Source: Verrucomicrobiia bacterium (GTDB taxonomy: Bacteria > Verrucomicrobiota > Verrucomicrobiia > Palsa-1439). From it: a stretch of 64,000 nucleotides of DNA. Made by a program: the position numbers and the translations under genes. The notes under the pieces are model-generated. The model was not told the origin of the DNA, made no database searches, and saw nothing but the letters and a program-made list of their open reading frames with translations. Below, in pieces: positions 4,729 to 36,683 of the stretch (positions are counted from its first letter, which is position 1; each line of letters begins with the position of its first letter). The DNA lies in assembly GCA_049510215.1 (NCBI GenBank), contig JBEKZD010000011.1, positions 28,151 to 92,150 of the forward strand, in the 5' to 3' direction.

Positions 4729-4813
4729 GGTGGCGGTTTCGAGATGCACGGAGATGCGTCCTTGCGTGCCGGCGGATTTCGGGGGATGATGCTTGTCAGA
4801 AGGATCGAAGGCA

Positions 4814-5368
4814 ATGAGGAGGACCATCTGTGTCATAGTCGCCGTCGTGAGCGCATGTCTCGTTGCTCGCGCGGCGGAAAAGGAGGCAACCATGACGCAA
4901 TTCAAGTTGACCAGTTCTATGTTCGGCGCGAACCAACCGATCCCAAAGAGGAACACGGGTGAAGGCCCGGACGCGTCGCCCGCGCTGAAATGGGAAGGCG
5001 CGCCGCCGGCTACAAAGAGCTTCGCGTTGATTTGTGACGACCCCGATGCGCCCGTTGGCACCTGGGTGCATTGGGTCGTCTACGACATTCCGGCGAAGAC
5101 GACCGAGTTGCCCGAGAACGTGGCGAAGATGGACACGGTTCCCGCTCTGGGCGGGACGAAGCAAGGCGTGAACGATTTCGGGCGCGTGGGCTACGGCGGA
5201 CCGATGCCGCCGCGCGGGCACGGCGTCCATCATTATTACTTCAAGCTGTACGCGCTGGATGCCGAGTTGAATTTGCCGGCGAAGGCAACCAAGGCGCAAC
5301 TTGAAGGCGCGCTGCGCGGACATATCGTTGCCCAGGCGGAACTGATCGGGACGTACGAGAGAAAGTGA
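4814..5368 (+). CDS. YbhB/YbcL (PEBP/Raf-kinase-inhibitor-like) family protein, secreted
   Basis: ORF 4793-5368; Met at 4814 followed by signal peptide; PEBP motifs DPDAPVGTWVHWVVYDIP and GHGVHHYYFKLYALD. Confidence 0.75.
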   Translation: MRRTICVIVAVVSACLVARAAEKEATMTQFKLTSSMFGANQPIPKRNTGEGPDASPALKWEGAPPATKSFALICDDPDAPVGTWVHWVVYDIPAKTTELPENVAKMDTVPALGGTKQGVNDFGRVGYGGPMPPRGHGVHHYYFKLYALDAELNLPAKATKAQLEGALRGHIVAQAELIGTYERK

Positions 5369-27433: not shown

Positions 27434-27498
27434 GCGATTGCTGGCCGCAAGCGTCTGCCATGCTGGTGTCCCGCTGGGTTGGGTTCAGGGACTTGCAG

Positions 27499-27615
27499 GC
27501 GACATCCTCCGCAGCCGGGCCGACATCGGGAAAGCAGCGAAACTTCTCGGCTGGACGCCGCGCGTCGATTTCCGCGAAGGCATCGAGAAGACCGTCGCGT
27601 GGTGTCGCAGGGCGT
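27499..27615 (+). pseudogene. remnant of 3' end of an NAD-dependent epimerase/dehydratase gene (copy 1)
   Basis: encodes DILRSRADIGKAAKLLGWTPRVDFREGIEKTVAWCRR (typical epimerase C-terminus) with no upstream gene body. Confidence 0.6.
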
Positions 27616-27660
27616 ATGTTATATGGGAAATGTCGGGTAACAACTATAAAGGAGATCGCA

Positions 27661-28386
27661 ATGAGTAAGTTCTCTACACGTAATCTATACACATATCTCA
27701 GAACGTTCGTGTTCTTGTTCATCTGCGCTTGGGCGCTATCAGCCCATTCACAAACAATTACCTGGCTGGATCTGCCATGGCCGACCAACCAAGACTGGCT
27801 CGGCCCGCATGGCTCACCGGCCACGACCAATGGAAACGTGATCACGTTGACCGGCCAGGATGTGCTCTCCACGCAGTATTTCTCCGGCCCGTCATACATT
27901 TCCTACAACGTCACTTTGACCTCGGAAACCACCCGTGACGGGAGTTTCGAACTCTTCTTTGTTCCCAGTGGAGAGGCTTCCAACACTCTGCCCGACCCCT
28001 GTGTCGGACTCCGAATGGTGTTTAATCCCGACGGTAGTCCAGGCACTGTACTGGCTCAGACGAACCACAACGACGGTATCGTGTTTTCGAACGCATTCAC
28101 GATCACCCCGCCGGCCGTGTATTCAAATGTCATTACCGTTGCTGGCAATGGGGTGGTGAGCTGGACGATCAACGGGCAAACCATTCCGTTGTCCAATTCG
28201 GTGGATATGCTATACAGCAGCTACCAATTCCGCCTCGAGAGTTGGGAGCCGACCCAGGTCTGGCAAGTCTCCAACTTTACTGTAGTGCCCGAGCCTGCCT
28301 CGGTAACCCTGGTCGGCGTGGGTGTCTTGTGCTTGGTCGCCGCGGTCCGCAGCCGCAAGCCGACGCGCTGTGTGCGGCGCCGCTAA
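27661..28386 (+). CDS. PEP-CTERM sorting-domain protein
   Basis: signal peptide; C-terminal VPEPASVTLVGVGVLCLVAAVRSRKPTRCVRRR = PEP motif + TM + basic tail. Confidence 0.75.
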   Translation: MSKFSTRNLYTYLRTFVFLFICAWALSAHSQTITWLDLPWPTNQDWLGPHGSPATTNGNVITLTGQDVLSTQYFSGPSYISYNVTLTSETTRDGSFELFFVPSGEASNTLPDPCVGLRMVFNPDGSPGTVLAQTNHNDGIVFSNAFTITPPAVYSNVITVAGNGVVSWTINGQTIPLSNSVDMLYSSYQFRLESWEPTQVWQVSNFTVVPEPASVTLVGVGVLCLVAAVRSRKPTRCVRRR

Positions 28387-28488
28387 CATTCGGTCACAGC
28401 CCGAAACGGACAATAATTCAAGCCCAAGAGACTCGGCGTGTGTGCTTTCAATCATCTTCCGCCCGAATAGCGTGTGCGGGACTAATAT

Positions 28489-28640
28489 GAGAGCGTGTCA
28501 GGCGAGGCGCTGTTTTTAACATCGCTCGGCCCAACCGCAACAAAGAGTGGAAGACCCCGCTGCAGATCCTGCGCGAACGCAATCCCAAACTGGACCCGGC
28601 CATCGCCTCCTGGCGTCCGCTTGACCTCGGCGCTGAACTC
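28489..28640 (+). mobile_element. possible degenerate 3' remnant of a DDE (rve-type) transposase
   Basis: frame encodes FNIARPNRNKEWKTPLQILRERNPKLDPA, resembling the YN..RPH..L..KTP.E transposase C-terminal signature; no intact ORF. Confidence 0.3.
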
Positions 28641-29073
28641 AGTCAATACTTCCATCGTTACTTACCCAAGAGGGGTCACAATCTACCTGTCCATCCCTCG
28701 TTTCTGCCTGCACGCCCCGCCACAACTTCCCCGATGTGGGCGGGCGCGGCGGCAGGCGGGTAGAAACGCCGAATTCCTTCGGGAAATGAATGACCCGCGC
28801 TTCGCAGAAGCGCAGCTACAACCGGAAAAATCATTTGGGCAACAGCCCCTATGAATCGCCGCTGCCGTCTGAGGAGAACCTATGCGGTCGGATCTCAGGA
28901 GAGCACGGCACATGTGGAGGTTGTGTTTCTTGCCGCGAATGCGTTTCGTGGTTCCAAGCTTTAGATTTGGACACCGCCGAATTCTTCTTGCAAGGGCTGC
29001 ATTTCCATGTTGTTATTTTGCGCGGCGGAGAAGTTTGCGATGGTTAATCCACCTTAAACAGCGAGGCAAAAAA

Positions 29074-29802
29074 ATGCGCAACATGACCGAGAGACAAACG
29101 GCACCCGCAGGCGACGCAGACTGCACTCAGCAAGAACCGCAACGCAATCGGAGACACGCCGAAGGATTCACGTTGACGGAACTGCTGGTGCTGGTGGCGA
29201 TAGGCGCCGTCCTGACGGGCTTGGCTCTGGCTGACTTGAGCCAAGACCGTTCAAAGCTGTTGCAGGAGGCCTGCGCCAGCAACCTGAAGCAATGGGGAAC
29301 GGTCTTTCAGATGTACGCCCATGACTACAACGGAGTGATCATGGTGAATTACCGTGGCCAGACAAATTACAATGCGAATTGGTACAGCTCCCTCGGCGTT
29401 TATGCCAAGTATTGGTCAACCAATAAGGTTGTTAACTCTGAAAGCCAGGCCCTGATGATGAAGGCGAAGTTGTGCCCGGCAATGCAGTTGACTACACCGC
29501 CTGCAGACAGCACGATCCCCGGCTACAGCATGATCCGGCCAGAACCCGCAACGCCAGATTTCAGGGGCTTTTACCTAAAGGACGTGAAGAAACCGAGCGA
29601 GCTTTTGGTCATGGTCGATTCCATCCCCACAAATAGCCTCGCGTACATAGGCGGGAACGGCGGGGGTGTGAGCGATGTGTTAGCGGCGACCAACCGTCAT
29701 TCTGGCGGGGCGAATCTCCTGTTCTGTGACGGTCATGTGGACTGGAAACCGTGGGCCGGTATCGAGACGAACTTTGCAAGCTGGACATCTCTTTCTCCTT
29801 AA
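29074..29802 (+). CDS. DUF1559 family protein with prepilin-type N-terminal cleavage/methylation domain
   Basis: RRHAEGFTLTELLVLVAIGAVLTGLA prepilin motif; C-terminal HSGGANLLFCDGHVDWKPW (DUF1559 H-X9-G); GCGAGG RBS 8 nt upstream of ATG 29074. Confidence 0.8.
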   Translation: MRNMTERQTAPAGDADCTQQEPQRNRRHAEGFTLTELLVLVAIGAVLTGLALADLSQDRSKLLQEACASNLKQWGTVFQMYAHDYNGVIMVNYRGQTNYNANWYSSLGVYAKYWSTNKVVNSESQALMMKAKLCPAMQLTTPPADSTIPGYSMIRPEPATPDFRGFYLKDVKKPSELLVMVDSIPTNSLAYIGGNGGGVSDVLAATNRHSGGANLLFCDGHVDWKPWAGIETNFASWTSLSP

Positions 29803-30018
29803 ATCGGTGAGGGTGGGCCGGCTGTGCCAGCCTCATCTGAGAGGGTTCTGCCTTTCGTACGCCGCCGCTTTCGGCTGACTCATTGACGATAGGAAGCGCG
29901 GGGCGGCATACCGGGGTGTGGGTTTTCCACCACGATGAACGGGTTGACCGCCATGACGCATCACACCATCGCCCGTTGTCTGTTGACCCTCTTAGCGGTG
30001 CTCCTTCTTCCTGCCATC

Positions 30019-30135
30019 GGCGACACCCTCCGCAGCCAGGCCGCCATTCCGAAAGCGACGTGAGTTCTCGGCTGGACGTGGCCGGTGGACTTCCGTGAAG
30101 GCATCCAGAAGGCCATCGCGTGATGTCGCTGGCCG
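30019..30135 (+). pseudogene. remnant of epimerase/dehydratase 3' end (copy 2, with internal stops)
   Basis: about 78% identical to 27499-27615; encodes DTLRSQAAIPKAT*VLGWTWPVDFREGIQKAIA*. Confidence 0.6.
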
Positions 30136-30214
30136 TCGTATCGAAAAAGTTACGCGGAAACGAAAGTTCTGGTTGCGTCGCTTTCGAGAATGAGTATAAA
30201 AGCTGCGACTCGCG

Positions 30215-31546
30215 ATGTACTGGATCAGCAAGAGCATTCATAAACTGGGACGCGGGCGCCGACGGCTGTTGATTTTCCTGGCGGTACTCGGGCCGGGCAT
30301 TATCACGATGATCGCCGACAACGACGCCGGCGGCATCTCCACGTATGCCCAGACCGGGGCGAAAACCGGCTTCAACCTGCTGTGGGCGTTCATCATCCTG
30401 GTGCCGATGGCGTATTACGTGCAGGAGATGACGGTGCGGCTGGGTGCGGTCACCAAACGCGGCCACGCCGAGGCGATCTTCGACGGGTTCGGGCCGTTCT
30501 GGGGCTGGTTCAGCATCTTCGACCTGGCGCTGATCAACTGGCTGACGTTGGTGACCGAGTATATCGGCATGACCCAGGCCATGAAGTTGTTCAACATCCC
30601 GACGTCGGTCACGTTCATCGGCGTGACAGCGTTGCTGTTTGGCATTGTGGTCAGCGGCAAGTACTGGACGTTTGAAAAAGTTACGCTCTGCTTTTGCCTG
30701 TTCAATCTGGTGTATATCCCCGCAGCGTTCTGGGCGATGAAGACCGGCAACGTGAACGAGGGATGGACCGCAGTGGGCCGTGGATTTTACGCACCGCACT
30801 TCCCCGGTGGCCTGACGGTGGAGTTGATCACGCTGATCATGGCCAACATCGGCACGACGATCACGCCATGGCAGATTTTCTTCCAGCAATCGGCCGTGGT
30901 GGACAAGGGGATGGACGTGCGCGACGTCAAGATGGGCAAGATGGACACGCTCGCGGGATCGTTCCTGACGTGTGTGGTGGCGGTGTTCATCATCATCGCC
31001 ACGGCCGGCGTGTTCTATTATCATCCCGGCGGACGGATCACCGTCGAGTCGGCGGCGGAGACGGCGGCCCAGATGCCGCATGTGATGCCGCAGCATCAGT
31101 GGGGTTATTGGGCGCGCGGGCTGTTTGCGATCGGGCTGTTTGATGCGGGATTGCTGGGTGCGCTGTGCATTTCGCTGGCCACCAGTTGGGCGCTGGGCGA
31201 GGTGTTTGGCTGGGCGCATTCGCTGAACAAGAGCGTGCGTGAGGCGCCGTGGTTTTACGTGGCGTACGTGCTCATGCTGATGTCGGCCGGCGTGGTGTCG
31301 CTGGTTTCGAGTACGAAAGTGCAGGACGTTATCACGATCTTCGTGCAAGTGGTGGCGGTCACGTTGCTGCCTGCGGCGCTGTTTTTCCTGATCCTGATTC
31401 TCAATGACAAGCAGGTGATGGGCGAGCACACCAACACGCGCTGGCAGAACATCGCCAACTGGTCGATTGCCATTTTTGTGGTGGCCATCTCCACGGTGTA
31501 CGGGATCTCCACCATTTACCCGGAATGGTTTGGAGGCACGCACTAG
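30215..31546 (+). CDS. NRAMP (SLC11)-related transporter with non-canonical metal-site residues (NRMT-like)
   Basis: LGPGIITMIADNDAGGIS aligns with NRAMP TM1 but DPGN is absent; TM6 ANIGTTITPWQ vs canonical AIIGATVMPHN (Met to Thr, His to Trp). Confidence 0.7.
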   Translation: MYWISKSIHKLGRGRRRLLIFLAVLGPGIITMIADNDAGGISTYAQTGAKTGFNLLWAFIILVPMAYYVQEMTVRLGAVTKRGHAEAIFDGFGPFWGWFSIFDLALINWLTLVTEYIGMTQAMKLFNIPTSVTFIGVTALLFGIVVSGKYWTFEKVTLCFCLFNLVYIPAAFWAMKTGNVNEGWTAVGRGFYAPHFPGGLTVELITLIMANIGTTITPWQIFFQQSAVVDKGMDVRDVKMGKMDTLAGSFLTCVVAVFIIIATAGVFYYHPGGRITVESAAETAAQMPHVMPQHQWGYWARGLFAIGLFDAGLLGALCISLATSWALGEVFGWAHSLNKSVREAPWFYVAYVLMLMSAGVVSLVSSTKVQDVITIFVQVVAVTLLPAALFFLILILNDKQVMGEHTNTRWQNIANWSIAIFVVAISTVYGISTIYPEWFGGTH

Positions 31547-31556
31547 AACGGCAATT

Positions 31557-32855
31557 ATGAACGGCCAACCCAATTCTCAACCGAAGCCTTCTGGACCGAC
31601 GACGGTCGCGCAGCAGGGTTTCGAGTTTTACTTTTTCTCCGAGTTGTACAAACGACCGGTGTGCGCCGGCAAGGTCAAGGACCGCATTGGCAAGGTGACG
31701 GATCTCGTCTTCAAGATGGCGGACCCGTATCCCGAGGCGGTGGGGATCCTGCTGGACCACGGCTGGGGCAAACCCAACGAGTTCGTGACGTGGGACAAAG
31801 TGCGGAAGATTGAGGACGACGCGATTTTCGTGACCCCGACCGAGAACGGACAAGCATTTCCGCCGTTTGTCGATCAGCCGGGCTGGATCCTGTTGAACGA
31901 ACACCTGATGGGGCAGACGATTCTGGACATTGACGGGCGGCGCACGGAAGTCGTCAACGACGTGCATTTGCTGGAGTCAAAGGGGCGGATGGTACTGGTG
32001 CATGTCGACATTTCCTTCAACGGCTTTCTGAGGAAGTGGGGACTCGGGCGGCTCACTTGGATCAAGGACCAATTCATCTCGTGGCGGTATGTTCAGCCGC
32101 TGTCGGTGGAAGACAAAGGCACGGACACTGTCTCGCTGTCGATCACCCGCAAACGGATCAAGAACCTGCCCAGCGAGGATTTGGCCGATGCGCTGGAAGA
32201 ATTGAAGGGCAACGAACAACAGGCGGTGTTCTCCGCCCTGGATTCAGAGAAAGCTGCCGAGGTGCTGATCGAAGCCGAGCCGCGCGCGCAGCGCCAACTC
32301 ATCGCCAATTTGCGGAAGGAACGGGCCCGCGGGATTCTCTCGGAGATGTCGGTGCCGCAACTGGCGGCCCTGTTTGCGGTGCTGCCGCACGACGACGTTA
32401 CGGAATTGATGGGGCTGTTGCCGAAGGAACAAGCCGACCGCCTCGAGGCCCTCATCTCCCAGCGCGAGGTGACCGCGCGGACCCTGATGTCGGCGGATTA
32501 TGTCGCAGTGGCGAAAGAGTCCAAGGTCGGCGAGGTGTTGAACAACATCCGCGTCTCGAAGCGCGACGCGGGCTGCATCTCCTACATTTACGTGGTCGGC
32601 CCGGAAAAAATGCTGGTCGGTGTCGTTGATTTGCGTGATCTTGTTCTCGCTGGGGATGCCATGGGTCTGGGGGACCTGATGGTATCGCCCGTCGTCTCGG
32701 CCCAGGAACATGATCTCCGGGACGACATCGCCGAGATGTTCGCCAAGTATCACTTTCGCATTATTCCGGTCGTGGATGACCAGGACCACATTCTTGGCGT
32801 CATCAATCACCGCGACGTTGTGGGCGCGACGCCGCGGGCCACGCCGGGAGGTTGA
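31557..32855 (+). CDS. soluble PRC-barrel + MgtE N-terminal domain + CBS-pair protein (no membrane domain)
   Basis: MgtE_N-like LADALEELKGNEQQAVFSALDSEKAAEVL...; two CBS motifs (VVGPEKMLVGVVDLRDL, IIPVVDDQDHILGVINHRDV); ends 1 nt-level adjacency to next ORF. Confidence 0.7.
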   Translation: MNGQPNSQPKPSGPTTVAQQGFEFYFFSELYKRPVCAGKVKDRIGKVTDLVFKMADPYPEAVGILLDHGWGKPNEFVTWDKVRKIEDDAIFVTPTENGQAFPPFVDQPGWILLNEHLMGQTILDIDGRRTEVVNDVHLLESKGRMVLVHVDISFNGFLRKWGLGRLTWIKDQFISWRYVQPLSVEDKGTDTVSLSITRKRIKNLPSEDLADALEELKGNEQQAVFSALDSEKAAEVLIEAEPRAQRQLIANLRKERARGILSEMSVPQLAALFAVLPHDDVTELMGLLPKEQADRLEALISQREVTARTLMSADYVAVAKESKVGEVLNNIRVSKRDAGCISYIYVVGPEKMLVGVVDLRDLVLAGDAMGLGDLMVSPVVSAQEHDLRDDIAEMFAKYHFRIIPVVDDQDHILGVINHRDVVGATPRATPGG

Positions 32856-32858
32856 GGT

Positions 32859-33026
32859 ATGCCGCGCATTCAGACAACTCCCATGGTCAAAGTGGCCCTG
32901 TATTCCCTGCGCATCTACCTGATCATTCTGCTGACACTGATCCTCATCAAGTTCATCCGGATCTTCTGTGCGAAGCCTGCCGACAAATCCGGCGCGAAGC
33001 AGGAAGAGCAACAGAAGCCGAACTGA
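32859..33026 (+). CDS. 55-aa single-TM microprotein
   Basis: MPRIQTTPMVKVALYSLRIYLIILLTLILIKFIRIFCAKPADKSGAKQEEQQKPN; GGGAGG 9 nt upstream; starts 4 nt after previous stop; not in ORF track (<60 aa). Confidence 0.5.
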   Translation: MPRIQTTPMVKVALYSLRIYLIILLTLILIKFIRIFCAKPADKSGAKQEEQQKPN

Positions 33027-33081
33027 CCATTGGGGCCTCCGATCTGATCAACTCGGATTCTTGATTATCCCTAAAAAGAGG

Positions 33082-33116
33082 GGAGGCCGAGGTTTGGGGC
33101 CTCGGCCTCTTTTTGT
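33082..33116 (+). terminator. rho-independent terminator after the transporter operon
   Basis: aggccgagg-tttgggg-cctcggcct stem-loop followed by ctttttg. Confidence 0.7.
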
Positions 33117-33184
33117 CGGCTGGCGTGGAGAAGCGCCATAGACGAGGTGTGGTATAGGGTGACTGCCAATTGAGCAGGGGCGAT

Positions 33185-33210
33185 GCCAGCCCCGAAAGCC
33201 TTCGGGCCAG
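33185..33210. repeat. small palindromic element family C (GCCAGCCCCGAAAGCYTTCGGGGCCAG)
   Basis: gccagccccgaaagccttcgggccag; near-identical copy at 43345-43372. Confidence 0.6.
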
Positions 33211-33397
33211 TGTCAAAACCGCTGAATCGGGGCCGAATATGGCCTGAAAATGACGGATTCGACCGTCAAAACTGCGACGGACTGGAAGAAATGTTCAATT
33301 TTGAAACTGCGCTGGTGCGACTGCGTTCTTGACTGGCCTGCTGGCCGTCGTTACGGTTGGCGGCTCGATAAACACAAATGGGAGATTCAGCTAGAGC

Positions 33398-34708
33398 ATG
33401 TCAGCGACAATCGAAAACGTAGCGCCTTGCCGCAAGAAACTGCGTGTGGAGGTCAATGCCGAGCGCGTGGCTGGCACCCGTGCGGAGATTCTGCAGGAGT
33501 TTCGCAAACACGCGGTCATTCCCGGGTTCCGCCCTGGCAAGGCGCCCGAGCCGATGGTAGATAAGCGGTATGCCCACGAGATCGACGAGGAATTACGCAA
33601 GCGAATCATTCCCGACACCTACCGCGAGGCGCTGGCTGAGAGCAAACTAAAGGTCGTCGGTTACCCACAGATCGAATCGGTCGAATACAAACCCGGCCAG
33701 CCGCTGGTTTACAGTGCCGCCGTCGATACCGCGCCGGAGTTTGGCCTTCCCGAGTACAAAGGCATCCCACTTGAGAAGAAGGAAGCGCCCGTGCGTGATG
33801 AAGATATTTCCAAGACCATCGGTGCACTGCGTGAGCAACAGGCCGACTTCGTCGCCGTCGAAGGCCGCGGGCTGCGCTCCGGTGATTTCGCGGTAGTGAA
33901 CTACAGTGGGGTAGCCGACGGCAAACCGATTGGCGAATTGGTGCCAGAGGCGAAAACGATCGGAGAAAGCAAAAACCTCTGGCTGCTGATTCAGTCCGAC
34001 TCGTTCCTGCCCGGCTTTTGTGACCAACTGCTCGGTGCGCAAACGGGCGAGAAACGCCAGGTGCTGATTGACTTCCCCGCCGATTTCCCACAAAAACCGC
34101 TGGCGGGGCGCAAGGCGACCTACTTCGTCGACGTGATCGCCATCAAGGACAAGAAATTGCCTGAGCTGAACGACGACTTTGCCAGGAAGATCGGTCTCGA
34201 CGGCGTTGAGAAGGTCAAAGAGGAAGTCCGCAAGAGTCTGACGACCGAACGCGACAGCCAAATCAGAGCCGATCTGCGGAAGCAGATTGTGGATTACCTG
34301 CTGAGCAGGGTCGAGTTTGATCTGCCCGAATCGTTGGTGGCACAAGAGACGCGCAGCATCATTTATGATGTTGTGCGCGAGAACAGTCTGCGCGGCGTCA
34401 GCAAGGAAACCCTCGAAGAAAAGAAAAACGAAATCTTCGGGTTCGCCACGAACAGCGCCAAGGATCGCCTGCGCAGCTCGTTCATCCTCGACGCGATTGC
34501 GCGGGCCGAGGGAATCAAGGTCGAGGAGAAGGAAATGGAAGAGCGCATCTGGCAGTTCGCGCAACGCTATCGCGTGACACCCGAGAAGCTCAAAGCGCAG
34601 CTTGCCGAACGCGATGGACTGAGGGAAATCGAGGAGCAAATCCTCGTGGGCAAGACCCTTGATTTCTTGGTCTCGAATGCTAAAGTGGAGGCCGTTCCGC
34701 AGAACTGA
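33398..34708 (+). CDS. tig: trigger factor
   Basis: 436 aa; N-terminal ribosome-binding domain, FKBP-like PPIase region; followed by clpP-clpX. Confidence 0.9.
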   Translation: MSATIENVAPCRKKLRVEVNAERVAGTRAEILQEFRKHAVIPGFRPGKAPEPMVDKRYAHEIDEELRKRIIPDTYREALAESKLKVVGYPQIESVEYKPGQPLVYSAAVDTAPEFGLPEYKGIPLEKKEAPVRDEDISKTIGALREQQADFVAVEGRGLRSGDFAVVNYSGVADGKPIGELVPEAKTIGESKNLWLLIQSDSFLPGFCDQLLGAQTGEKRQVLIDFPADFPQKPLAGRKATYFVDVIAIKDKKLPELNDDFARKIGLDGVEKVKEEVRKSLTTERDSQIRADLRKQIVDYLLSRVEFDLPESLVAQETRSIIYDVVRENSLRGVSKETLEEKKNEIFGFATNSAKDRLRSSFILDAIARAEGIKVEEKEMEERIWQFAQRYRVTPEKLKAQLAERDGLREIEEQILVGKTLDFLVSNAKVEAVPQN

Positions 34709-34754
34709 GCGTTGCGCAACAAGGAGGCAGGGGAACTGCTGAACGTTTGAAGGA

Positions 34755-35387
34755 ATGATCATGGAAAAAGCCCAGATTCTGATTCCGATGGTGGTCGAAC
34801 AAACCGGCCGCGGCGAACGCGGTTACGACATCTATTCGCGGCTGCTCAAGGACCGCATTGTCTTCATCGGCACACCGGTTGATGACAACGTGGCAAACCT
34901 GATCATCGCACAGATGCTCTACCTGCAGTCGGAAGATCCGGCCAAAGACATCAACCTTTACGTCAACTCACCCGGCGGCTCTGTTACAGCGGGCTTGGCG
35001 ATCTACGACACGATGCAGTTCGTCAAATGCGACGTGACTACTTACTGCGTCGGCCAGGCCGCCAGCATGGGTGCGGTGTTGCTCGCCGCGGGCACAAAAG
35101 GCAAACGTTTCGCGCTGCCCAACGCCCGCATCCTGATCCATCAACCGTGGGGCGGCGTGCAAGGTCAGGCATCGGACATCAGCATTCAGGCCAGAGAGAT
35201 TCTCCGCCTCCGTGATCGGCTCAACGAGATTTTCGCTCTGCACACGGGCAAACCCATCGACGTTATCGCCAAAGACACCGACCGCGACTTCTTCATGTCC
35301 GCAGCGGAAGCTCGCGACTACGGTTTGGTGGACGACGTGGTGAAATCACGACGCGAGCCCGAGAAGAAAGTAGAGAAGGCAGCCTGA
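34755..35387 (+). CDS. clpP: ATP-dependent Clp protease proteolytic subunit
   Basis: [20 protein letters not shown]...[14 protein letters not shown]...ILIHQPWGG catalytic Ser/His context. Confidence 0.95.
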
Positions 35388-35396
35388 GGAGTCGTT

Positions 35397-36683
35397 GTGG
35401 CGCGCCCGACCAACCTGACGATGTGCAGCTTCTGTGGAAAAACCCACGGCGAGGTGCGCAAACTCATCGCAGGTCCGGGCGTGTACATCTGTGACAATTG
35501 CATCAGCGCCTGCAAGAGCATCCTCGACAAGGAACTCGGTCACCAGAAGGGCAGGACCGGCTTTCGCCTCAATGTTCCCAAGCCGGCCGAGATCAGACGT
35601 CAGCTCGATCAGTACGTCGTAGGCCAGGAACGCGCCAAGAAAACGATCGCCGTCGCCGTTCACAATCACTACAAACGGATTCAGCAGGATTCTTCAGTCG
35701 CCGAACAGAACGGCGACGCGCAGACGTTTCTCAGCCAGCACAGCGATGTCGAAATTGAGAAGAGCAACATTCTATTGATCGGCCCGACAGGCTCAGGCAA
35801 GACGTTGCTGGCGCGCACGCTCGCCCGTGTCCTCGACGTGCCATTCTGCATTGCCGACGCAACGACGCTGACCGAGGCAGGCTACGTCGGCGAAGACGTC
35901 GAAAACATCGTGCTGCGGCTGTTGCAGAACGCCGATTACGACGTCAAGCGCGCCGAGTTGGGCATCGTCTACATCGACGAGATCGACAAGATCGGCCGCA
36001 AGAGCGATTCGCCGAGCATCACCCGCGACGTTTCGGGCGAAGGCGTCCAACAGGCGCTGCTGAAAATCCTTGAAGGCACAGTGTGCAACGTCCCGCCGCA
36101 AGGCGGCCGCAAACATCCGCACCAGGAATACATCCAGGTCAACACCGAACACATCCTGTTCATTTGCGGCGGCGCGTTCATCGGGCTGGACAAGATCGTG
36201 CAGCGGCGGATTGGCGGTCACGCGCTGGGCTTCGGCGGTCCAGAGGGCGCGGCCGACATTGCCGACAGGACGCGGGTATCGGAGCACGTCGAACCGGAAG
36301 ACCTGCTGAAGTTCGGAATGATTCCCGAGTTCGTGGGTCGCTTGCCGGTTGTTTCCGTGCTCAATGAACTGACCGAGGCAGAACTGATCTCCATTCTCAC
36401 CGAAACGAAGAACGCGATGATCAAGCAGTACAGCAAGCTCTTCGCAATGGAGGGTGTGAATCTCAATTTCACCAGGGACGCTCTTCAAGCTCTCGCTCAG
36501 GAGGCGCTCACGAAGGGGACGGGCGCGCGGGCGCTGCGTGCGTTGCTGGAAAAACTCATGCTCGATTTGATGTACGACATTCCGTCGCGCGACGACATCG
36601 CCGAGGTCACCATCAACCGCGCCGTCGTCGAAGGCAAACGCGAACCGCTGATCCGCAAAAAGCAATCCAAAGACGCCGCTTAG
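35397..36683 (+). CDS. clpX: ATP-dependent Clp protease ATP-binding subunit ClpX
   Basis: zinc-binding CSFCGK..CDNCI; Walker [15 protein letters not shown]; GTG start at 35397 or ATG at 35421. Confidence 0.95.

Follow-up and report, generated by a model that had tools for sequence, protein, structure and literature searches.

Why should a carrier of the NRAMP fold be encoded beside a soluble protein built like the cytoplasmic part of the Mg2+ channel MgtE, and what is the small membrane protein encoded after the two? The question is raised by an operon in a 64,000-nucleotide stretch of DNA from a Verrucomicrobiia bacterium (GenBank assembly GCA_049510215.1, contig JBEKZD010000011.1, positions 28,151 to 92,150). 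This whole stretch is called the window, and positions are given in its own numbering. On the plus strand, the operon contains a carrier gene of the SLC11 family (30215..31546, 443 aa), the gene for the soluble partner ("SOL", 31557..32855, 432 aa), and a microprotein gene (32859..33026, 55 aa) whose product has a single transmembrane (TM) segment. Our reading, to which we would give a probability of about 0.6, is that the three genes encode a divalent-cation uptake system of the NRAMP-related magnesium transporter (NRMT) type, composed of the carrier, a membrane helix subunit, and a cytoplasmic regulatory subunit. NRMTs form a fourth class of bacterial Mg2+ importers, and the window locus typifies a known system in which an NRMT is accompanied by an MgtE-like partner. 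What we add, and did not find in the searchable literature, is threefold: the conserved microprotein, its relation by fission or fusion to long-form carriers, and a TM helix on the partner in the lineage of the transporter EleNRMT.

The pairing of carrier and partner has a history. Shin et al. (2014, PLoS Genet, PMC4072509) named NrmT, reported that most nrmT genes adjoin a stand-alone gene for the MgtE cytoplasmic domain, and speculated that this MgtE-like partner exerts cytoplasmic feedback regulation, with chaperone activity or Mn2+ sensing also offered. An earlier note on the window, made from its sequence, had suggested a split, trans-acting Mg2+-sensing gate and had taken the pairing to be undescribed; it had in fact been both reported and interpreted in 2014 (PMC4072509), and the split-gate idea is a rediscovery of that speculation. 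Gating itself is a conjecture in the earlier note and in Shin et al. alike. In the text of Shin et al. that we searched, neither the PRC-barrel half of the partner nor a third small membrane gene is mentioned, the partner goes unmentioned in the 2022 study of EleNRMT (PMC8806188), and the later literature that we searched yielded nothing on the partner's role or on a third gene.

The carrier and its soluble partner

The carrier has the NRAMP fold proposed in the earlier note (Pfam Nramp, E = 1.3e-69), and its best match in a search against all PDB sequences is EleNRMT (7qia, E = 2.8e-59), whereas MntH (4e-13), DMT1/NRAMP1, and plant NRAT (1e-9) reach 4e-13 or worse. All NCBIfam MntH and Nramp models fall below their own cut-offs, and identity is 37% to EleNRMT as against about 24% to DraNramp. 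EleNRMT has 11 membrane-spanning segments, and the window carrier, which aligns with it end to end, is by this alignment also an 11-TM protein. The published binding-site signatures are DxxG-TxxA/T for NRMTs, DxxN-A/CxxM for NRAMPs, and DxxN-AxxT for NRATs (Ramanadane et al. 2022, PMC8806188). In the carrier, TM1 reads DNDAGG (residues 35-40, 30317..30334; D37-A-G-G40 as DxxG) and TM6 reads GTTITPWQ (residues 213-220, 30851..30874; T214-x-x-T217 as TxxT), both aligning without gaps to GNDAGG and GTTIAPWM of EleNRMT; DAGG and TTITPW stand where canonical NRAMPs have DPGN (TM1) and A/CxxMPH (TM6). DAGG is invariant in the carrier alignment and occurs in all 88 sequences of the gene-order groups A and B described below, the metagenome loci among them having been selected by motif. 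Because EleNRMT is the best solved relative and the published signature is present, the sequence places the carrier in the NRMT clade rather than with canonical MntH.

These motifs sharpen what the earlier note had said. Its TM6 string, ANIGTTITPWQ, is as claimed, and the kinship with NRMTs that it proposed is borne out by the EleNRMT match and the DxxG/TxxT signature. It described DPGN as lost, but TM1 keeps the metal-binding Asp and exchanges Asn for Gly, exactly as EleNRMT does. It also took a Met-to-Thr change as the mark of NRMTs. Thr is indeed found at the NRAMP Met site (T217), but the Thr critical for Mg2+ replaces the NRAMP Ala, not the Met: in EleNRMT this residue is T224, whose mutation abolishes Mg2+ transport (PMC8806188). 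The window carrier has Thr at both TM6 positions (T214 at the Ala site, T217 at the Met site), and Thr instead of Ala at the former Met position is also seen in 29 of 40 group A sequences. Both α-6b His residues of H+-coupled NRAMPs are replaced (W219, Q224), while E115 on α-3 and Q378 on α-10 correspond to E133 and Q379 of EleNRMT, a Mg2+ transporter without H+ coupling that has likewise lost the α-6b histidines (PMC8806188). Fold, DxxG/TxxA-T signature, loss of the α-6b His residues, and retention of the α-3 Glu and α-10 Gln are thus shared with the NRMT/NrmT proteins CabNRMT (Ca_c0685) and EleNRMT (7QIA). H+-uncoupled transport of Mg2+ (and Mn2+) has been demonstrated for these two alone (EleNRMT: PMC8806188); in the clade of the window carrier it is predicted. 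This clade is separate from EleNRMT and very conserved, with about 80% identity across phyla among the top matches and a mean of 73% within the clade.

Could the carrier nevertheless be an ordinary Mn2+/Fe2+ MntH, its odd motifs an artefact of alignment? This scenario, which the earlier note had itself raised, would suit labels given in the databases, among them "Mn2+/Fe2+ NRAMP family transporter" and "divalent metal cation transporter", but the score of EleNRMT is 46 orders of magnitude better than that of any MntH, and the NCBIfam cut-offs, the two identities, and the gapless alignment of DAGG and TTIT all speak against it. In a neighbour-joining tree, each gene-order group is monophyletic, groups A and B together exclude the EleNRMT group, and all lie far from DraNramp. 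Tree, cut-offs, EleNRMT match, and identities together refute a canonical MntH identity, and we regard its probability as negligible.

The partner combines a PRC barrel (residues ~23-96, 31623..31844; PF05239, E = 1.6e-8) with an MgtE N domain (~205-301; MgtE_N, E = 9.1e-20) and two CBS domains (~305-425, E = 1.2e-16), the last two elements spanning 32169..32831. It ends 9 residues past the CBS pair, and a check for hydrophobic segments found none; TM segment and plug helix are both absent. The TIGR00400 mgtE model reaches 123 bits against a cut-off of 233 and aligns only over profile positions 20-248 of 450. The MgtE cytosolic domain 2yvy is matched by phmmer against the PDB (E = 1.1e-28, ~33% identity) and by Foldseek from an AlphaFold2 model (E = 4.8e-17); the Foldseek matches also include many nucleotide-binding CBS proteins. 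The model is of low global confidence, with a predicted local distance difference test (pLDDT) score of 68.9 and a predicted template-modelling score of 0.36 overall, and serves to recognise domains only, their arrangement being left uninterpreted: the PRC barrel (~30-100, pLDDT ~80) and the CBS pair are confident, the N domain is moderate, and a second β region (110-200) is poorly modelled (pLDDT 45-56). Partners are about 65% identical across Verrucomicrobiota, Planctomycetota, Acidobacteriota, Desulfobacterota, and Bacteroidota, and the PRC-barrel region is conserved in those of group B, Eggerthellaceae, and actinobacteria. The description in the earlier note of a PRC-barrel, MgtE N, and CBS protein lacking the pore holds in Pfam, TIGR00400, and Foldseek alike, and by homology the partner is the cytoplasmic module of MgtE without its pore. 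Its reading frame is open from 31467, but the true start is the ATG at 31557, which gives a product identical to a database protein (P0001).

In the MgtE channel (Thermus thermophilus, 2YVX/2YVY), the homologous N domain and CBS pair detect Mg2+ in the cytoplasm and shut the pore in cis. The partner differs in its added N-terminal PRC-barrel region and in lacking the plug helix and TM pore, and could act on the carrier, an unrelated protein of the LeuT fold, only in trans. Many sources call it a "magnesium transporter" (JGI; one PLSDB record). The label is misleading because the protein has neither the five-TM pore nor the plug helix, and the carrier label "Mn2+/Fe2+ NRAMP family transporter" is misleading as well.

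Conservation of the three genes

Co-occurrence of the genes was followed in two surveys. A genome scan seeded with SOL gave 31 loci from Verrucomicrobiota, Planctomycetota, Acidobacteriota, and Desulfobacterota-type metagenome-assembled genomes (MAGs), and a metagenome scan for which the NRMT motifs A[DG]NDAGGI and IGTTI[TA]PW were the only seeds gave 80 loci; six-frame open reading frames (ORFs) were scored against profiles of the carrier, the two partner halves, and the microprotein. All three genes are present in each of the 45 NRMT-selected loci that continue for 1.9 kb or more downstream of the carrier, and a carrier is found in 27 of the 28 SOL-selected loci with enough upstream flank. 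The soluble gene is thus co-conserved with the carrier, the outcome on which the earlier note had staked its proposal. Of the 31 loci found with SOL, 27 show the carrier upstream of the partner and the microprotein downstream of it, and three meet a contig edge upstream of the partner with the microprotein still downstream; the remaining one is taken up below. The microprotein stands at its expected place, directly after SOL or between carrier and SOL, in 75 of 75 loci that reach far enough. A three-gene arrangement kept across several phyla in this way is far beyond chance.

Adjacency persists through three orders of carrier (T), partner (SOL), and microprotein (m): T-SOL-m, T-m-SOL, and SOL-T. 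Carriers in the first (group A), the order of the window, are at least 61% identical to each other, and those in the second (group B) are ~53-57% identical to the window carrier. In the third, close relatives of EleNRMT in Paraeggerthella, Raoultibacter, and Adlercreutzia have a 450-455-aa PRC+MgtE_N+CBS gene immediately upstream, so that the partner is not special to the window clade. The published nrmT plus "partial MgtE" operons (among them ACP_2976/ACP_2977 of Acidobacterium capsulatum) resemble the window in placing an NRMT gene beside a stand-alone MgtE-cytoplasmic-domain gene; there, as in Eggerthellaceae, the partner comes first, whereas the carrier comes first in the window (PMC4072509).

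Plasmids extend the picture. A full-length partner occurs in 11 plasmid records, and every copy compared by position adjoins an NRMT-like gene; full-length PRC-containing partners were never seen away from such a gene on the plasmids inspected. Six distinct systems can be told apart: those of Citrobacter, Serratia, Streptomyces clavuligerus (three near-identical records), Leifsonia, Mycolicibacterium, and Rhodococcus qingshengii, the last of which lies outside the 11 records and is annotated beside its carrier. The IncHI1B plasmid pPSV of Citrobacter freundii (NZ_LR881935.1, about 135.8-138.5 kb; locus L119, 3501-6213) carries a carrier-microprotein-partner triad whose carrier is 54% identical to that of the window, and the Serratia marcescens plasmid CP068396.1 has the same arrangement. 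The 56-aa microprotein ORF of pPSV (4783-4953 of the locus) is missing from the PLSDB gene table. Neighbours of the triad on these conjugative plasmids are an ArsR/SmtB regulator, a heavy-metal P-type ATPase, and a Tn3 transposase. The presence of the complete triad on conjugative enterobacterial plasmids is evidence of joint movement of the three genes as a single module. Complete Escherichia coli genomes lack the triad, whose enterobacterial plasmid copies offer a tractable host. The window clade as a whole is very widespread in the environment, with thousands of database proteins at ~65-80% identity across phyla.

The third gene encodes MPRIQTTPMVKVALYSLRIYLIILLTLILIKF, with one TM segment, and fits the pattern of a proposed family of NRMT-associated microproteins: 36-70 aa, P-R/K-I/V-x-x-T/S ... 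L-R-x-Y-L ... K/R-F around a single TM helix, beside an NRMT gene. The family core can be written MPR(I/V)x(M/T)(T/S)..x(K/R)..L..LRxYL..L..L...(K/R)F, and in a 20-sequence cross-phylum alignment M1, R3, L14, L17, Y20, L27, and F32 are invariant. The window protein consists of the N-terminal MPRIxxTP motif, a TM helix containing LRxYL, and a lineage-specific 19-aa C-terminal tail that most homologues lack; microproteins of the second gene-order group have a conserved N-terminal extension of ~20-30 residues (...K(I/V)RE(I/V)Nx(K/R)Y..). The microprotein, the least documented of the three products and the most telling one, received only brief mention in the earlier note, which called its ORF unannotated. 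The ORF is, however, present in JGI/ENA gene calls and in an NCBI MAG record, as "hypothetical protein" MGA2221482.1. Some gene callers start it at Met9 (47 aa; window 32868-32882; cluster members P0243-P0246), but the 55-aa start at 32859 is favoured because residues 1-8 (MPRIQTTP) are conserved across phyla.

That so short and hydrophobic an ORF, without a Pfam or NCBIfam match at E<=1, might have arisen by chance in the stretch from partner gene to terminator is a natural objection. Of the codon differences between distinct sequences, 38-41% are synonymous in the proposed frame, as against 6-12% in the other two, and in 104 distinct sequences the frame contains zero stops, as against 15-185 per alternative frame. 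A profile of the microprotein retrieves 292 of 1.84 billion cluster representatives at E<=1e-3, the best 150 of which are all 32-150 aa long. Protein-level conservation across phyla at two operon positions, the codon pattern, these cluster matches, and the homology with long-form carriers described below refute the chance-ORF reading, which retains scarcely any credibility. The alignments mark the microprotein as a real gene under purifying selection.

Placement of the extra helix and a possible assembly

A tblastn search of plasmids with the window carrier retrieved long-form carriers of ~540-560 aa, annotated as "Nramp family divalent metal transporters", in Ralstonia, Burkholderia, Mesorhizobium, Alicyclobacillus, Leifsonia, Rhodococcus, and Mycolicibacterium. 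They are about 100 residues longer than the window carrier and have an NRMT-like core ~39-41% identical to it, with DAGG or DAGA on TM1 and TTVA on TM6. The tail consists of an extra TM12, an Arg-rich loop, and a final helix with W-x-M-P-P-L ... L-R-(G/S/A)-Y-L ... (K/R). Profile-profile alignment (hhalign) of the microprotein with seven such tails gives a probability of 88.5% and P = 2.7e-6 over 33 columns, and none of 200 column-shuffled controls reaches the observed score of 30.2 (mean 8.8, standard deviation 2.0, maximum 16.2). By this comparison the microprotein is homologous to the terminal TM helix of the long-form carriers, W-x-M-P-P-L juxtamembrane motif included; the helix is fused to the carrier through TM12 in the long forms and is a separate polypeptide in the window.

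The fused form also bears on topology. With 11 TM segments, and assuming the usual cytoplasmic N-terminus of SLC11 proteins, the C-terminus of the carrier core would be outside, so that in a fused form TM12 has to bring the chain back to the cytoplasmic side ahead of the homologous helix. TM12 and the Arg-rich loop ahead of the helix point to an N-in topology, in which the conserved N-terminal motif of the microprotein is probably cytoplasmic.

Where the helix is not a separate gene, it or an analogue of it is found elsewhere. A hydrophobic segment is present in 0 of the 88 partners of groups A and B, which have the microprotein. The three Eggerthellaceae partners each have a strong C-terminal TM helix after the CBS pair, and no microprotein was found in these EleNRMT-type loci. 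Actinobacterial partners, which are paired with long-form carriers, have no TM helix. Each partner-containing system examined therefore has one extra helix, whether free-standing, on the carrier, or on the partner. From this complementary placement we infer, in a Rosetta-stone-type reading, that carrier, helix, and partner may form one assembly.

Long forms have a partner beside the actinobacterial copies and not beside the proteobacterial ones. On the megaplasmid of Acidithiobacillus caldus SM-1 (L120, 3354-4956), an annotated 71-aa hypothetical protein with the microprotein core lies directly after a short-form carrier, and no partner gene was found within 3.5 kb of that carrier. This and other proteobacterial NRMT-like carriers (L120, L121, L123, L124) sit among CDF, CadR, and other metal-sensing genes. 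Because proteobacterial loci have the helix, separate or fused, without the partner, the extra helix keeps closer company with the carrier than the partner does. Just downstream of the actinobacterial long-form carrier and partner are MgtC/SapB genes, in Leifsonia (L125, 5950-6732) and Mycolicibacterium (L127, 5141-5851), which are an independent contextual link to Mg2+ homeostasis.

Small single-TM proteins of ~30-55 aa, whose genes lie within or close to a transporter operon and which act on the transporter concerned, are familiar as subunits or regulators: KdpF of KdpFABC, MgtS and MgtR on MgtA, and MntS on MntP. The window microprotein differs from them in having a fused counterpart in related transporters and in co-occurring with a soluble sensor protein, and no sequence relationship with them is evident.

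In the three-part system that we favour, the carrier would be an 11-TM core importing hydrated Mg2+ (and Mn2+) without H+ coupling, a substrate assignment that follows EleNRMT by homology. The microprotein would be an N-in single-helix membrane subunit, the counterpart of the last long-form helix as a separate polypeptide, presumably in physical association with the carrier. The partner would be a cytoplasmic regulatory subunit, probably docking on the assembly of carrier and helix and throttling uptake in response to the metal and/or nucleotide state of the cytoplasm, a task that the homologous domains perform in cis in MgtE. An uncoupled carrier is driven by the membrane potential and lacks a brake of its own, which makes feedback sensing in the cytoplasm the most economical role that the partner could have. 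The role of the MgtE-like partner of NRMTs has been a question since 2014, and a third membrane component offers a concrete architecture for it; a constant third component with fused-to-carrier and TM-on-sensor variants makes trans-acting regulation of a LeuT-fold carrier testable.

Several observations weigh against this reading. Mapping of the cytosolic Mg2+ ligands of MgtE (E258, D259, D91/D247, D226/D250, D95, and E59; PMC5882242), by the site assignments of that study and alignment to T. thermophilus MgtE, finds two of the six mappable positions kept in the partner (E59 as E235, D247 as D420) and four changed (D91 to P267, D95 to a gap, D226 to H399, D250 to G423), and the plug helix with E258/D259 is missing. 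Residues E235, P267, H399, and D420 are each at least 90% conserved in the family. With only two of six positions kept, the conserved ligands are not counted as evidence of Mg2+ sensing, and on these alignments MgtE-style Mg2+ clamping cannot simply be assumed for the partner. When the A. capsulatum pair ACP_2976/2977 was co-expressed in Mg2+-transport-deficient Bacillus subtilis, the partner gave no further Mg2+ rescue, and the carrier rescued a Mn2+-uptake defect (PMC4072509). An Rfam E-value scan of 29000-34000 gave zero matches, M-box included, and neither an M-box nor another known RNA was found in 13 related loci or in two Eggerthellaceae loci, so nothing independent ties the window locus to Mg2+; in the published nrmT operons the M-box lies upstream in a subset only and is not obligatory (PMC4072509). 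The Eggerthellaceae partner helix gives P = 0.018 against the microprotein (hhalign), with 1 of 100 shuffles reaching the score; homology is not demonstrable, and the two helices are positionally analogous only. No partner gene was found within 3 kb of the proteobacterial long forms, which keep the helix nonetheless and so imply that it has a partner-independent role too. Locus L031 (MAG contig CAVVNC010000028.1, 5001-6246), finally, has a frameshifted partner and no carrier within 5 kb. It is the sole surveyed locus with a partner but no adjoining carrier and microprotein, and may represent either the remnant of a pseudogene or an error of long-read assembly.

Much of this would be accommodated if the partner sensed something else (Mn2+, another metal, or adenine nucleotides through its CBS pair), or were a metal chaperone handing the ion onward, rather than a Mg2+ gate. 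Shin et al. name chaperone activity and Mn2+ sensing as alternatives, and their A. capsulatum carrier behaves as a Mn2+ importer on whose Mg2+ rescue the partner has no effect (PMC4072509); the four altered ligand positions, one of them the nearly invariant H399, the nucleotide-binding CBS proteins among the Foldseek matches, and the heavy-metal genes around the enterobacterial and other proteobacterial plasmid copies point the same way. Against these stand the facts that the only characterised clade members transport Mg2+, that the partner retains the entire MgtE N+CBS architecture, which is not known outside Mg2+ channels, that MgtC genes adjoin two actinobacterial loci, and that many partner genes elsewhere are under Mg2+ riboswitches (PMC4072509). 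We consider this alternative rather unlikely, yet deserving of serious weight. A more radical view would have the three genes merely co-regulated, the partner acting on another target and the microprotein independent, with no physical complex. CabNRMT, EleNRMT, and the A. capsulatum carrier do each work alone in heterologous or reconstituted assays (the last in PMC4072509), and the association of carrier, helix, and partner in this clade, a further point for that view, is read from the genes. Mere co-regulation sits poorly, however, with strict co-occurrence across phyla and through permutation of gene order, with joint transfer onto IncHI1B-type plasmids, with fusion of the extra helix to the carrier in long forms and of a TM helix to the partner in Eggerthellaceae, and with the constant company of an NRMT-like gene beside full-length PRC-containing partners on plasmids; we think it improbable.

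The three-part reading also has a stronger form, which we hold as no more than a tentative suggestion: NRMTs may be obligate three-part assemblies in which the extra helix, with its MPRI/WxMPPL motif, couples the soluble sensor to the carrier. The helix would then be placed in three ways: encoded separately in the window, joined to the carrier in long forms, and joined to the sensor in the EleNRMT lineage. If this were so, structural and transport work on an NRMT alone, and the negative two-gene co-expression, would miss a regulatory layer; a missing microprotein might be the reason for the A. capsulatum result, if that locus has the third gene.

Terminator, flanking genes, and leader

The three ORFs, their adjacency (stop-to-start spacers of 10 nt between carrier and partner and 3 nt between partner and microprotein), and the clean terminator described in the earlier note were all found. 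The intrinsic terminator (33083..33114, plus strand) is a GC-rich hairpin of 10 bp, GAGGCCGAGG / CCTCGGCCTC (33083-33109), followed by TTTTT. Downstream lies tig-clpP-clpX (33398-36683), with tig starting at 33398 as the next gene, and upstream are genes for a PEP-CTERM protein and a prepilin-like H-X9-DG-CTERM protein (27460-29802). None of the flanking genes is metal-related, and signs of mobile elements are absent around the window copy.

The intergenic leader of the operon (29803..30214, plus strand) yielded no convincing σ70-type promoter, and a short leader ORF of some related loci does not occur in it. This conserved ORF, of 24-28 codons and starting ME(D/E)DPGG, belongs to a Desulfobacterota/Syntrophorhabdales subclade (L020, L023, L026-L029, L033, L034, L043, L044), where it lies ~200-320 nt before the NRMT start, accompanied by a σ70-like promoter and a Shine-Dalgarno site, with seemingly paired segments after the ORF and no Rfam match. 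It may be a translation-coupled attenuator, and it recalls the Pro-containing mgtL and mgtP leaders of Salmonella.

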